This document shows, one piece after another, positions 34,905 to 38,771 of a stretch of DNA of 59,011 nt. The DNA is from an uncultured Dehalococcoidia bacterium (lineage in GTDB: Bacteria > Chloroflexota > Dehalococcoidia > Lucifugimonadales > CAUZEB01): assembly GCA_964431885.1 (NCBI GenBank), contig CAYSLK010000138.1:1-59011 (forward strand). Reading direction: 5' to 3'. The notes beneath the pieces were generated by a model that saw nothing but the letters and a program-made list of their open reading frames with translations, searched no databases and was not told the origin of the DNA. Position numbers and translations under genes: made by a program. How positions within the stretch are numbered: position 1 is the first letter of the stretch; each line of letters starts with the position of its first letter.

Positions 34905-35942
34905 ATGCCCACCAGTGCAACAATGACACCAAGAGAGCGAGTTTTAAACGCCCTGTCCGGCTCTCCTGTCGATCGTACTCCCGTAGCCAATCCAACAAGT
35001 GTGGCGACCGTAGAACTCATGGATATGGTGGATGCTCCATTTCCTGGCGCATGCCGTGATCCCGAAATGGCTGCTCGTCTAGCAGCTACGGGTCATACGA
35101 TACTGGGATTCGATTCCGTAATGCCGTATTTCACTATTATTCAGGAGTCTTCTGCGTTAAATTGTGAAATGCAGTGGGAAGGGAAAGATAATTGGCCAAC
35201 AGTGCGCATGTACAATCCGATTTGGAGAGGTCCTAACGACATCTCAATACCTCCCGATTTCCTTGATCATCCTGATAATCAGACAATCACCAAATCAATT
35301 GCGATGTTAAAGTCGGAATTTGGCAACGAAGTTGCAATAATAGGGAAAACTATGGGCCCATGGACACTAGCTTACCATGTATTTGGTGTGGAAAGTTTTC
35401 TTTTAAGTACTGTTGATGACCCTTCACTAGTTAAAAAAGGATTGAATAAATTGAAAGAGATTTCTATTCTCTTTGGGGAAGCACAAATTGACGCTGGGGC
35501 AGATATACTAACTTTTCCTGATCACGCAACAGGAGACTTAGTTAGTGGCGATTATTACAGAAGATTTCTTCAAGAACTGCACGTGGAAATGGCTGAACGA
35601 CTCTCAGTACCCCTAATTCTCCATATTTGCGGTAATACGCTCGACAGAATGAAATATATTGCTGAAACCGGCATGGCGGCTTTCCATTTCGATTCTAAGA
35701 ATGATCCTCAGTTAGCTATGGACGCAGTTGAAGGCAAAATAGCTATGGTTGGTAACATAAATAATCCTGAAACCCTGTACGCCAGAGGACCTGAGGAGGT
35801 TCGAGAGGAAGTATTCAGAGCTTTAGACGCTGGCGTAGATTTAATTGCTCCAGAATGTGCGATTCCTCTGGCAACGAAACTCGAAAATCTTCTTGAAATT
35901 CCTAGATCAGTAATAAAATGGCATGAAGAACGGGATGGATAG
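34905..35942 (+). CDS. uroporphyrinogen-decarboxylase-family methyltransferase (MtaA/MtbA/MtsA-like, Zn-dependent methylcobamide:thiol type)
   Basis: MTPRERVLNALSG.PVDR.P N-terminus, Zn motif LILHICGNT (H-x-C) and a distal Cys in APECAIP. RBS GGAGG 7 nt upstream. Confidence 0.85.
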   Translation: MPTSATMTPRERVLNALSGSPVDRTPVANPTSVATVELMDMVDAPFPGACRDPEMAARLAATGHTILGFDSVMPYFTIIQESSALNCEMQWEGKDNWPTVRMYNPIWRGPNDISIPPDFLDHPDNQTITKSIAMLKSEFGNEVAIIGKTMGPWTLAYHVFGVESFLLSTVDDPSLVKKGLNKLKEISILFGEAQIDAGADILTFPDHATGDLVSGDYYRRFLQELHVEMAERLSVPLILHICGNTLDRMKYIAETGMAAFHFDSKNDPQLAMDAVEGKIAMVGNINNPETLYARGPEEVREEVFRALDAGVDLIAPECAIPLATKLENLLEIPRSVIKWHEERDG

Positions 35943-36143
35943 TCCCTATCACACTATAGAGTCCGTACTTCCAAAGGTGATTATTTTTCAAATGCCTAAT
36001 CTATTGCTTCAAAATCACATCTTTCCAATACAAAGTGGCTAGATTTAAATTTAACTGATAAAATCTTTTATGATCATCAATGTCTATTTATAGATGACCA
36101 CAATCTATGGAGGTCTATACCTAAATGGTGGGGAAGAAAACAA

Positions 36144-36887
36144 ATGCCCATTACACATGATGGTTTGAAGAAGGAATTTGAATATATCGGTAAGCCCTTT
36201 GAGTTGAATCACATCCAAAGTCTATTCAACGACTCCGACCCATTAATGCACGAAATGGCTCACAACCTCATAATAGGCAATCAACACGAAGTAGATCGTC
36301 TAACAAAAAAAGCTCTTGACTCAGGGTTTTCCGCTAATACTATCCTAGACGATGGTCTCATATCTGGTATGGCTATTGTCGGGATTAAATTTAGAGACAA
36401 TTTTATTTTCGTCCCTGAGGTTTTAGTGGCGGCTCGTGCAATGAAAGCAGGGATGGCACACTTGGAACCTATATTGTCAGCCTCTGGTATAAAACCAATT
36501 GGCACTATCATAATGGGTACCGTAAAGGGCGATCTGCACGACATAGGTAAAAACCTTTGCATCATGATGCTAAGAGGAGCCGGATTCACTGTTCACGATC
36601 TCGGAGTTGACACCACATCAGACACATTCATTGAAGCGGTATCTGAACACAATGCTGATATTTTAGGAATGTCAGCATTGTTAACCACAACCATGCCTAA
36701 TATGGGCAAGACTATAGAAGCATTTGAAGAGTTGGGGCTACGTTATGAAGTTAAAATCATGGTCGGAGGTGCTCCATTGACACAAGAATTCGCCGATGAT
36801 ATGGGTGCCGATGGGTACGGACAGGACGCTATATCCTGCGTAGATCTCGCTAAAACATTTGTAGGCATCCAGACATTAAATCAATAG
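36144..36887 (+). CDS. corrinoid (cobalamin-binding) protein, MtaC/MtbC-like
   Basis: B12-binding motifs GDLHDIGKN (DxHxxG), MSALLTTT (SxL) and MVGGAP (GG), preceded by a helical cap domain. Confidence 0.9.
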   Translation: MPITHDGLKKEFEYIGKPFELNHIQSLFNDSDPLMHEMAHNLIIGNQHEVDRLTKKALDSGFSANTILDDGLISGMAIVGIKFRDNFIFVPEVLVAARAMKAGMAHLEPILSASGIKPIGTIIMGTVKGDLHDIGKNLCIMMLRGAGFTVHDLGVDTTSDTFIEAVSEHNADILGMSALLTTTMPNMGKTIEAFEELGLRYEVKIMVGGAPLTQEFADDMGADGYGQDAISCVDLAKTFVGIQTLNQ

Positions 36888-36923
36888 GTGATTTCAACTA
36901 CTCGTCAATCAGGATAGAATTAT

Positions 36924-37166
36924 ATGCGGCAAGAAGTTGATAAGGAAAGTTACAAAGCCAGTATAGAACGTCTTCATGATATCTTCAAAGACATGTCTAA
37001 AAGTGTTGACAAAGTGTCGCGTTGGCGCTGTCCATACAAGAATGCGAAAGATAGATGTACCGCTAATTTCGGCTGTCGAAACCAGGATCGAGACGTAACA
37101 CCAGGTACCTTATACATTTGCAATGATAATAACGAATTAGACTACCGTAGCGCTTGGGAAATCTAA
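36924..37166 (+). CDS. hypothetical small four-cysteine protein
   Basis: 80 aa with WRCPYKNAKDRCTANFGCRNQ...YICND (C-x7-C-x5-C-x14-C). Begins 36 nt after the corrinoid protein gene. Confidence 0.5.
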   Translation: MRQEVDKESYKASIERLHDIFKDMSKSVDKVSRWRCPYKNAKDRCTANFGCRNQDRDVTPGTLYICNDNNELDYRSAWEI

Positions 37167-37364
37167 AGCAAGAAGCACACAGTAATATTGATTTTGTAAT
37201 AATATGTATAATTGCTAAGCCCTTGTGATAATTACCTTAGCTTTGTTAACATATTACCGACGATTTGTCATAGACTAAAAGAATACATGATTGTCTGAAC
37301 CAAAATACTTACTCTAAAAGAGAGGTGTTTCGTTATACTTGACGCAAATTGTGAAACAATAGAG

Positions 37365-37697
37365 GTGATGAAGAAGGATCGCTCTCCGACACTGAAAGAA
37401 ATCGGTGATTTGATTTCCCATTCGCTAGATGCGGGAATTAAGTTGAAACGCTTACAAGGCTTTGACATAGACCTTTCAGCTAATAAGGATTTTCACAAAG
37501 TATTTTTTTCAGCCATATGCTCGTGTGGTACTGCAGCTGTACTTAGCGTAGAGGTTTCCAATAATAAAACCATGAATGAAATCAAACGCGCGCTCCCGTC
37601 ACTAGTAAATAAACTCACAGTTCAGAGTGAAATGTTCTATCGTATGTCCTGCGACATGCACAAGAAAATGCGGAGCGGTCTCACAGACAAACTCTAA
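37365..37697 (+). CDS. hypothetical protein
   Basis: 110 aa ORF (GTG 37365 or ATG 37368 after GAGG). Contains a CSC motif. No family recognised. Confidence 0.45.
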   Translation: MMKKDRSPTLKEIGDLISHSLDAGIKLKRLQGFDIDLSANKDFHKVFFSAICSCGTAAVLSVEVSNNKTMNEIKRALPSLVNKLTVQSEMFYRMSCDMHKKMRSGLTDKL

Positions 37698-37727
37698 ACA
37701 CCAAGATCTCTTGATAAAAGGATTAAC

Positions 37728-38165
37728 ATGGCAAGGCGTCCAAAAAAGCAATTTACAGAGGCAGAGGCATTACAACGAGCCAAAAAGTTTTCCGAAGGCT
37801 ATGTTAAAAAAGGTCCGTACGAATTTTTCCCCGAACAAGATGTTGTTCAGGTGGTGCAAGAAGGATTGGGAGAAAATGAAAGGAAATTCGGATATCGTTA
37901 TTGCCCTTGAATGCCCCTAAGCGGTGATCCCGTCGAGGATCGCAAGAAAATATGTCCTTGTGAGCGTCATCATGAAGACATAGAACGAGATGGATTCTGT
38001 ATATGAATGTTTTTTGTAAGCGAAGAGTTTCTTCGCAAGTATGAATCTGGGGAAGATTTCAGCCAAACTATAGACGAGGCTGTTCCGCTTGGCGAAGAGT
38101 TGTTTGGCGAGGGTGGAGGCAAACGAGAGTTCAACGATAAAAAACGTAAACAAGCTTCAGAATAG
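37728..38165 (+). CDS. ferredoxin:thioredoxin reductase catalytic-subunit-like protein, predicted selenoprotein with two Sec (TGA 37908-37910 and 38004-38006)
   Basis: Reading through the two in-frame TGAs gives a 145-residue protein, KKFSEGYVKKGPYEFF..VVQVVQEGLGENERKFGYRYCP-U-MPLSGDPVEDRKKICPCERHHEDIERDGFCI-U-MFFVSEE... It is collinear with the FTR catalytic chain (..KFSEQYA.R..TYF...VI.GLA.HK..LG.PLCPCRHY..NCPCVPMRERKECHCMLFL). The TGAs fall on the second Cys of the first motif and the second Cys of the third motif. RBS AAGGA lies upstream of ATG 37728, and a stem-loop follows each TGA. Confidence 0.8.
37924..37943 (+). promoter_or_regulatory. SECIS-like stem-loop for TGA 37908
   Basis: 7 bp stem GUGAUCC/GGAUCGC (one G-U pair) with loop CGUCGA. 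20 nt separate the UGA from the loop, and G is the second loop base. Confidence 0.55.
38020..38036 (+). promoter_or_regulatory. SECIS-like stem-loop for TGA 38004
   Basis: Perfect 7 bp stem GCGAAGA/UCUUCGC with loop GUU. 20 nt separate the UGA from the loop, and G is the first loop base. Confidence 0.6.
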
Positions 38166-38206
38166 CTTAACATTTATTATATAAGCAAATTGAAAGGAAC
38201 GAAGTC

Positions 38207-38455
38207 ATGGAAGATACAGGAGTTCAAGTTTATAGCTCCAACGGCTGAGGTCCCTGCCAAATGGTGAAGGTGTACCTTTCACGAAAGGGAATTCCATTTG
38301 AGGAATTTAATGTGTCATTAGACAGAGAAGCATTGACACGGCTGGTTAAAATGGGTTACAGAACGACACCCGTTGCGATTATTGGTAACGAGAAGGTAGT
38401 TGGATATAGCCCTTCCAAACTCGATTCTGCATTGAATACCGCCGGGCTGAGTTGA
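38207..38455 (+). CDS. NrdH/glutaredoxin-like redoxin, predicted selenoprotein (Sec at TGA 38246-38248; active site U-G-P-C)
   Basis: ATG 38207 (RBS AAGGA about 8 nt upstream) gives MEDTGVQVYSSNG-U-GPCQMVKVYLSRKGIPFEEFNV..TPVAIIGNEKVVGYSPSKL. It is collinear with NrdH/Grx (IYT..DCVQC...L...G..FE..NV...LPVV....GF.P), with the TGA at the first Cys of CxxC. The ORF track only reports the part after the TGA (38261..38455). Confidence 0.8.
38264..38282 (+). promoter_or_regulatory. SECIS-like stem-loop for TGA 38246
   Basis: Stem GUGAAGG/CC(U)UUCAC (7 bp, one bulged U) with loop UGUA. 22 nt separate the UGA from the loop, and G is the second loop base. Confidence 0.5.
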
Positions 38456-38544
38456 GATTCTAATATCTGAGCAATACTTCTGGCCTATTCGCAATAATTA
38501 CACAGACGTATACGACAATTTAATCTAATATGAACCGATGTCTA

Positions 38545-38574
38545 TTGACCAAACATCTGGTCACGGTCTAGAAT
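38545..38574 (+). promoter_or_regulatory. candidate promoter for tRNA-Asp
   Basis: TTGACC (38545-38550), an 18 nt spacer, then TAGAAT (38569-38574), ending about 35 nt before the tRNA 5' end. This is pattern match only. Confidence 0.25.
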
Positions 38575-38608
38575 TCATCGAAGGCATTGACTGACAGTTT
38601 AGAAACGG

Positions 38609-38683
38609 GGCCCCGTGGTGTAGTGGTTTTAACACACTGCCCTGTCAAGGCAGAGATCGCCGGTTCGAATCCGGTCGGGGTCG
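38609..38683 (+). tRNA. tRNA-Asp (anticodon GTC)
   Basis: Hand-folded cloverleaf. Acceptor GGCCCCG/CGGGGTC (one G-U pair), D stem GTGT/ACAC, anticodon stem CTGCC/GGCAG with loop CTGTCAA, T arm GCCGG-TTCGAAT-CCGGT. CCA is not encoded. Confidence 0.9.
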
Positions 38684-38771
38684 CTTCTCAATTTAAACAA
38701 AATAGATAGCGCCTAAAGCACGAGCATACAATAAAACAGAAAGGCCCATAGTTATCAATGGAGGTGTATTG

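Follow-up and report, generated by a model that had tools for sequence, protein, structure and literature searches.

Ferredoxin:thioredoxin reductase (FTR) proteins that carry selenocysteine (Sec) in place of cysteine have been on record since an FTR selenoprotein was recognized in two Global Ocean Sampling reads, for which selenocysteine insertion sequence (SECIS) hairpins were also reported (Zhang and Gladyshev, 2008; PMC2398784). The double-Sec FTR has since been listed in a 2022 review (PMC9312934) and in a 2026 review (PMC13188914, as NF041072 with '2' Sec), and Sec-containing glutaredoxins with a UxxC site are likewise an already listed selenoprotein family. The selenoprotein operons set out in the 2026 review comprise grdA-grdB, prdB-prdC, frhA-frhD-hdrA, Prx with a SelW-like gene, a Prx-like with an AhpD-like gene, SAO and Tso (PMC13188914); an FTR-redoxin pair is absent from that list, and neither review mentions a partner redoxin or a gene upstream of the FTR. 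A functional precedent comes from Methanosarcina barkeri, in which, as summarized in later papers, an FTR-like ferredoxin disulfide reductase (FDR) feeds a class III ribonucleotide reductase (RNR) whose reductant is the glutaredoxin-like NrdH, while the same enzyme type reduces MaTrx, an atypical thioredoxin of Methanosarcina acetivorans (Wei et al., 2015, as cited in PMC9176816 and PMC6262447). Here we describe, in a 59 011 nt stretch of DNA from an uncultured Dehalococcoidia bacterium (contig CAYSLK010000138.1; referred to below as the window), a double-Sec FTR-like gene (open reading frame A, ORF A) that is followed by a Sec-redoxin gene (ORF B) and preceded by a gene for an uncharacterized protein with a CxC...CxxH pattern, the three together constituting a conserved module of marine SAR202 (Dehalococcoidia) that is probably transcribed as one operon.

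Searches of family and structure databases, run on the proteins with U replaced by C, place the product of ORF A firmly among the FTR catalytic chains. It matches Pfam PF02943 with E=2.4e-22 and the NCBIfam equivalog NF041072, 'FtrB family double-selenoprotein', with 226.3 bits against a cutoff of 160, the match covering model positions 1–120 of 121. The sequence reads ...YRYC59-P-U61-MPLSGDPVEDRKKI-C76-P-C78-ERHHEDIERDGF-C91-I-U93-MFFVSEEF..., giving the motif CPU-x14-CPC-x12-CIU, after which come a conserved acidic stretch and a tail rich in Lys and Arg. The translated read JCVI_READ_1093012271142 (PMC2398784, Dataset S2), running from YRYCPU to CIUMFFVSEE, belongs to the same family and is identical to ORF A in its core. 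The nearest solved relative is the FTR-like enzyme of M. acetivorans (4TPU, E=3.1e-12), with the motif CPC-x14-CPC-x12-CYC; 7PWE is also among the nearest, while the classical FTR chains 1DJ7 and 2PU9 are far more distant (E ~1e-5). Residues Cys59, Cys76, Cys78 and Cys91 align to the four [4Fe-4S] ligands of the solved FTRs and are all invariant, and Sec61 and Sec93 align to the redox-active Cys57 and Cys87 of 1DJ7. ORF A shows neither the x16/x8 spacing of the classical enzymes, its own being x14/x12, nor the catalytic His of their CHC motif, which is replaced by Ile here and by Leu in a divergent set of relatives (loci L099–L106). No rubredoxin domain was found in the 145-residue protein, for which Pfam returns PF02943 only and whose C-terminal 45 residues contain no Cys, and none of the eight proteins scanned in the neighbourhood of the module matches the FTR variable-subunit family. 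On the strength of these correspondences we infer that ORF A encodes an FTR/FDR-type disulfide reductase that would bind a [4Fe-4S] cluster.

The greatest similarity of the window is to metagenome-assembled genomes of SAR202/Dehalococcoidia. The three in-frame UGAs were compared across 16 loci from species-representative genomes, 80 loci from metagenomes, retrieved with the 31-residue core between the two FTR Sec residues as the query, and several contigs obtained from protein look-ups. In sequences from other contigs the FTR TGA codons are invariant (79/79 distinct sequences), as is the redoxin TGA (69/69); counted by locus, the FTR UGA is conserved at the first site in 97 of 98 loci and at the second in 97 loci. 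Nucleotide diversity is biased to third codon positions on either side of every TGA, with values of 0.05, 0.01 and 0.45 at codon positions 1, 2 and 3 between the two FTR UGAs, and further in-frame stops are absent from the FTR gene set and number one in the redoxin set, in locus L105. A Cys codon at the first FTR site occurs only in the clade of locus L017 (CPC...CIU), which is the usual Sec/Cys interchange. Each UGA is followed 13–15 nt further on by a 7-bp hairpin with G-U in its loop (NGUNGA, GUU and UGUAY, respectively). The stem cells of hairpin 1 are paired in 95.6% of cases (71 distinct sequences; loop consensus NGUNGA) with no compensatory change seen, those of hairpin 2 in 99.2% (69 distinct sequences), including one C-G to U-A compensatory pair that costs an Arg-to-His change, and those of hairpin 3 in 99.8% (60 distinct sequences), including one G-C to U-A compensatory pair that likewise costs an amino-acid substitution. 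At gathering thresholds Rfam reports tRNA only, with nothing at E<=1 across positions 37300–38620, and none of the curated SECIS families fits. When the window was scanned crudely for further in-frame TGAs in a Cys context, nothing but noise emerged beyond the three sites.

That these TGAs might instead be true stops (the genes being fragments or pseudogenes), products of sequencing error, or codons reassigned to Trp or Gly is a reading that can draw on the behaviour of public gene callers, which split the genes (60 + 52 and 64 residues) or read TGA as W, and on the fact that no Sec machinery is seen in the window. It is effectively refuted by the invariance of TGA at catalytic Cys positions in 60–79 distinct sequences drawn from numerous samples, the codons on either side being under purifying selection, by the hairpin after each UGA, by the variant codon at the first site, which is Cys and not Trp, and by the curation (NF041072) and publication (PMC2398784) of the family as a selenoprotein. 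Genome-wide reassignment of TGA is rejected, since TGA terminates 10 of the 40 long open reading frames of the window and is therefore an ordinary stop in this genome. The two read-through calls made in a first-pass annotation of the window, one for the FTR-like gene and one for the redoxin gene, thus hold, and judged by codon conservation and homology we consider the Sec assignments secure, short of proteomics.

The redoxin encoded by ORF B contains the segment ...SSNG-U14-GP-C17-QMVKVYL..., and matches the Pfam Glutaredoxin family PF00462 with E=5.2e-13. Its best NCBIfam matches, both below cutoff, are NrdH (TIGR02194, 62.6 versus 85.75) and YruB (TIGR02196, 74.8 versus 88.55), and its nearest solved relatives are small glutaredoxins, thioredoxin-like proteins and NrdH redoxins (7C10, 3ZIT, 4HS1 and 1H75), the closest being 7C10, a small glutaredoxin of 84 residues. 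The cis-Pro segment TTPV is present, and the motif G-U-GPC-[HQRK] is kept in 87 loci. The hallmarks of NrdH are a CVQC active site and the motif WSGFRP; ORF B has neither, its active site being UGPC and its segment VVGYSPSKL only partly resembling that of WSGFRP. Because of its best NCBIfam matches and nearest solved redoxins the protein is assigned an NrdH/YruB-like fold combined with an xGPC active site of the thioredoxin type, and on these matches it is no true thioredoxin; of the small thioredoxin-fold UGPC protein that the first-pass annotation had described, the UGPC site stands and the thioredoxin identity does not. Since the redoxin retains the resolving Cys17, its oxidized form would be a selenenylsulfide, and the chain would be selenium-rich and not selenium-only, contrary to the earlier proposal that every thiol-disulfide exchange step would be replaced by selenol chemistry. 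For their reduction NrdH redoxins depend on dedicated reductases and not on glutathione.

The association of these genes extends well beyond the window. A UGA-bearing redoxin lies 3′ of the FTR gene on the same strand in 16/16 species genomes, and the redoxin is found downstream of the FTR in 71 of the 73 loci that have at least 400 nt of downstream sequence. On the other side, a homologue of the upstream gene stands directly 5′ of the FTR in 84 of the 86 loci whose sequence extends 400 nt or more in that direction. The farther flanks (a URO-D-type methyltransferase, a corrinoid protein and peptidases) are common only to the window and its closest relative, L001. The divergent loci L099–L106 contain members of the upstream family found by look-ups that used neither the FTR nor the redoxin as the query. 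Here the trio is intact, with the upstream gene (its product 29–36% identical to the window protein) followed by a double-Sec FTR (CP-U-M...FCL-U-LF) and then a G-U-GPCH redoxin, within flanks that are wholly different and contain either rpoC and a CN-hydrolase gene or genes of the futalosine pathway. The retention of the trio amid unrelated flanks identifies the conserved unit as three genes. A downstream tRNA-Asp gene, conserved in most of the close SAR202 relatives and absent from L099–L106, is by contrast a matter of synteny and lies outside the module, since it is kept only among the closer relatives. The first-pass annotation had given the coordinates, strand and 41-nt spacing of the reductase and redoxin genes exactly, and its suggestion that co-occurrence in relatives would be the check on their pairing is borne out in the informative loci and in the divergent ones; the linked pair that it described is, however, part of a unit of three. 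Taken with the Methanosarcina precedent, this linkage makes it a well-supported proposal that the FTR-like protein and the redoxin would act as a cognate reductase-redoxin pair.

The upstream gene encodes a protein of ~105–109 residues in which Cys51, Cys53, Phe90, Cys95 and His98 are invariant; its family is very small, comprising 69 of 1.84 billion representative clusters. Sequence and profile searches gave no match in Pfam, NCBIfam or the PDB. A confident AlphaFold2 model (pLDDT 86.9) presents a helix, three strands and two helices, and a Foldseek comparison of this model with the PDB found no significant neighbour, the best having E=0.18 and a TM score of 0.34; weak matches to TBP and to kinases were rejected as chance. 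As the PDB includes FTR variable chains, this lack of similarity to solved structures indicates that the modelled protein is not homologous to the FTR variable subunit. The first-pass annotation saw no FTR variable subunit, rubredoxin fusion or ferredoxin gene nearby, but overlooked a conserved partner gene directly upstream. With its invariant His, the set of three Cys and one His resembles a metal site more closely than it does a redox disulfide. In one 150-residue family member, P0056, Pfam finds a ribosomal protein L29 domain at the N terminus (E=1.9e-24), which reflects either a genuine fusion or a gene call that merged two genes.

Such tight linkage on the 5′ side also raises the question of whether the upstream protein, and not the redoxin, could be the dedicated substrate of the FTR, with a redox-switched CxC disulfide, or its true partner, leaving the redoxin as an accessory. 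The upstream gene is linked as tightly as the redoxin, in 84 of 86 loci and in the divergent ones, its Cys residues are invariant and its family of only 69 clusters is restricted to the module. We nevertheless regard this arrangement as improbable, as three Cys accompanied by an invariant His point to a metal site rather than to a redox disulfide and no homology backs any role for the protein; it is moreover compatible with a relay from the FTR-like enzyme to the redoxin and does not exclude it.

Gene linkage and homology together lead us to propose, as the probable though by no means certain function of the module, a three-component, selenium-based relay from ferredoxin to the redoxin. The steps, drawn by analogy with FTR and the Methanosarcina FDR, would follow the mechanism that Dai and colleagues are said to have established for FTR in 2007. 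A low-potential one-electron donor would reduce the [4Fe-4S] cluster held by Cys59, Cys76, Cys78 and Cys91; a ferredoxin could fill this role, as could the upstream protein should its three Cys and one His bind a metal. The reduced cluster would then cleave the adjacent Sec61-Sec93 diselenide, with Sec93 staying at the cluster and the surface residue Sec61 attacking the Se-S bond of the oxidized redoxin at Sec14 to give an intermolecular Se-Se intermediate. A second electron would free Sec93, which would resolve this intermediate and release the reduced selenol/thiol redoxin. The redoxin would in turn pass the reduction on to cellular disulfide targets, for which RNR, peroxiredoxin and methionine sulfoxide reductase can only be named as guesses.

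Several observations weigh against this relay and have to be set beside the linkage. Contact and electron transfer between the FTR-like protein and the redoxin are inferred from gene linkage and homology; no ferredoxin gene lies within the module; and selA, selB, selD and a tRNA-Sec gene are none of them seen in the window, in which the only tRNA gene is that for tRNA-Asp. Single-sequence folding recovers the hairpins, but individually they do not significantly exceed shuffles in stability (z −1.1 to −1.7) and their covariation is sparse, so that the hairpin evidence rests on position and conservation. The linkage evidence comes entirely from one lineage, SAR202 and its relatives, and thus partly reflects shared ancestry. 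Finally, Sec-FTR genes occur without a redoxin in two contexts, which means that the enzyme can exist apart from its redoxin partner. The first is locus L038 (2830–3294), a lone double-Sec FTR gene with both TGAs intact and neither a redoxin nor an upstream gene; it is 99.9% identical to the IMG/VR contigs L108–L110 (UViG_3300009414_000100, _3300025267_000081 and _3300008218_001355), which are catalogued as viral. The FTR of these putatively viral contigs may be a phage-carried selenoprotein auxiliary gene. The 421-, 642- and 889-residue open reading frames flanking it in L038 and L109 gave no PHROG match and no viral hallmark, and the one Pfam match beside it, to CarboxypepD_reg in the 889-residue frame, is below threshold. 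The second context is a sister clade comprising L017, with a single-Sec FTR at 397–822 (CPC/CIU), and L107, with its FTR at 52–480 (CPU/CIU), which lacks both the redoxin and the upstream gene and whose conserved neighbour is a convergent gene for a 47-residue desulforedoxin (CxxC...CC; 913–1056 on the minus strand in L017 and 570–713 on the minus strand in L107).

These redoxin-free genes lend weight to a reading in which the module is a co-regulated selenoprotein cluster, under selenium-dependent expression or in a common stress regulon, with no direct transfer between its products: the redoxin would be reduced by an NADPH thioredoxin reductase, of which NrdH-type redoxins are classically substrates, and the FTR-like enzyme would act elsewhere. 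Other selenoprotein clusters of unclear functional connection have indeed been reported (PMC13188914). Yet the genes retain their order, orientation and close spacing in 71 of 73 loci, and do so in very divergent members amid unrelated flanks; a route from FDR to an NrdH-like redoxin has been demonstrated in Methanosarcina, according to the summaries in PMC9176816 and PMC6262447; and the Sec of the redoxin sits exactly where a bond with the FTR nucleophile is expected. We therefore think it unlikely that the genes are linked by regulation only, and retain the relay as the preferred interpretation.

The partner types now seen within this enzyme clade are a fused rubredoxin (4TPU), an adjacent desulforedoxin (L017/L107) and the 3Cys+1His protein of the module, and the recurrence of these three types suggests that small metal-centre proteins feed such FTR-like enzymes. 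Extending this, the upstream protein could be a small metal-centre protein of a new kind, with Fe or Fe-S, that docks on the double-Sec FTR as its electron-input or adapter subunit, making the module a self-contained three-protein relay in which the diselenide is cleaved at an Fe-S cluster via an Fe-Se intermediate and the reduction is passed on through an intermolecular Se-Se bond, the enzyme component having perhaps been borrowed by phages (L038/L108–L110). This more elaborate scheme is speculative, and we consider it rather doubtful as a whole.

The layout of the module and its immediate surroundings is collected in Table 1. AAGGA-type ribosome-binding sites precede both ORF A and ORF B. 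Promoter and terminator scans around the module gave nothing better than shuffled sequence, the sole notable site being the promoter-like match before the tRNA-Asp gene. The upstream frame and the FTR gene share a reading frame in the window, with one TAA between them; this looks coincidental, because the frames differ at other loci. The set of genes at 34905–37166 resembles a corrinoid-dependent methyltransferase system and is common only to the window and L001. On the long-read contig of locus L018 (1525–2910) the three-gene module and the tRNA-Asp gene are present with the FTR gene frameshifted and with insertion sequence/transposase genes directly downstream, the frameshifts being probably assembly errors rather than the mark of a pseudogene. 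In public gene calls (P0001–P0009 and P0091–P0111) the genes are split, the FTR into pieces of 60 and 52 residues and the redoxin to 64–65 residues, and are unnamed, while other public calls render TGA as Trp, presumably through gene calling with code 4/25 on short contigs; with its genes split or their TGA read as Trp the module is invisible in routine annotation.

Table 1. Positions of the module genes, their UGA codons and hairpins, and neighbouring features in the window.
Feature	Position	Strand	Remarks
URO-D-family methyltransferase	34905–35942	+	
Corrinoid B12-binding protein	36144–36887	+	
80-residue Cys-rich ORF	36924–37166	+	no family match
Upstream partner gene 's37365', uncharacterized CxC...CxxH family	37368–37697	+	start uncertain within a few codons, GTG 37365 or ATG 37368
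ORF A, FtrB-family double-selenoprotein, 145 residues	37728–38165	+	two in-frame TGAs; PF02943, NF041072
UGA for Sec61	37908–37910	+	FTR Cys57 position (interchange nucleophile)
SECIS-like hairpin 1, 7-bp stem GUGAUCC/GGAUCGC, loop CGUCGA	37924–37943	+	13 nt past UGA
UGA for Sec93	38004–38006	+	FTR Cys87 position (cluster-interacting residue)
SECIS-like hairpin 2, GCGAAGA-GUU-UCUUCGC, 7-bp stem	38020–38036	+	13 nt past UGA
Intergenic gap between ORF A and ORF B	38166–38206		41 nt
ORF B, NrdH/YruB-like glutaredoxin-fold selenoprotein, 82 residues, Sec14-Gly-Pro-Cys17	38207–38455	+	one in-frame TGA
UGA for Sec14, N-terminal (attacking) position of redox motif	38246–38248	+	
SECIS-like hairpin 3, GUGAAGG-UGUAC-CUUUCAC, 7-bp stem	38264–38282	+	
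Promoter-like TTGACC-18-TAGAAT	38545–38574		just 5′ of tRNA-Asp
tRNA-Asp (GUC)	38609–38684	+	~150 nt 3′ of redoxin gene

If the relay operates as proposed, three consecutive redox-active positions distributed over two partner proteins are selenium, and the module would offer a natural test bed for asking why evolution keeps Sec over Cys, how a diselenide behaves beside a [4Fe-4S] cluster and whether reductase and substrate Sec residues co-evolve. An orphan family with an invariant 3Cys+1His set gains a testable context at the same time. Because the dark ocean holds abundant SAR202 bacteria, the module may have a bearing on thiol redox homeostasis in this group and on its need for selenium, and should the three-protein version with a metal-centre upstream subunit prove true, it would amount to a selenium-specific redox wire in a highly abundant deep-ocean bacterial group. 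The headline is nevertheless limited, the double-Sec FTR as such having been on record from 2008 onwards. The author of the first-pass annotation was not aware of any description of such a paired arrangement, and a full-text literature search, which does not prove absence, likewise found no published FTR-redoxin selenoprotein pair; the elements, however, are not new, the double-Sec FTR having been published (PMC2398784) and curated (NF041072) and the route from an FTR-like enzyme to NrdH having been published for M. barkeri, according to PMC9176816 and PMC6262447. What appears to be new is the conserved module of three genes and three Sec residues, together with its orphan CxC...CxxH protein; the double-Sec FTR is not.

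Comparison with the described systems makes the extent of this novelty clearer. The FTR of the Global Ocean Sampling reads (PMC2398784) and of NF041072 FtrB_double_U is of the same family as ORF A, with two Sec residues at the redox-active positions, but it was described from two single reads holding the FTR gene only, to which the window adds the redoxin and the upstream gene. The classical plant and cyanobacterial enzymes (1DJ7, 2PU9) share with ORF A the PF02943 fold family, the four cluster-ligand Cys residues and a redox pair beside the cluster, and their acceptor has an xGPC site as does the redoxin of the window. They differ in their weak similarity to ORF A, in the x16/x8 spacing and the CHC motif with its catalytic His, in being obligate heterodimers with a variable subunit and in having a true thioredoxin (WCGPC) as acceptor. 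Selenoproteins of the SelL type contain a UxxU motif whose two Sec residues are thought to form a diselenide redox centre; by common account, however, SelL has a Prx-like fold, places its UxxU within one turn and has no Fe-S cluster, unlike ORF A. The Methanosarcina FDR (4TPU) is the closest solved relative, resembling ORF A in its x14/x12 spacing, in the non-His middle residue and in having no variable subunit, and the M. barkeri genes reportedly lie in one cluster. It is, however, an all-Cys enzyme with a fused rubredoxin, whereas the window presents three Sec residues, no rubredoxin, a separate CxC...CxxH protein and no RNR gene nearby. A succession of two Sec-using redox partners has a parallel in Clostridium sp. 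OhILAs, in which a Sec-glutaredoxin is described as reducing a Sec-containing methionine sulfoxide reductase, MsrA (Kim et al., 2011, as cited in PMC9312934); there the Sec-redoxin donates electrons to a Sec-enzyme, whereas that of the window would receive them from a double-Sec reductase.

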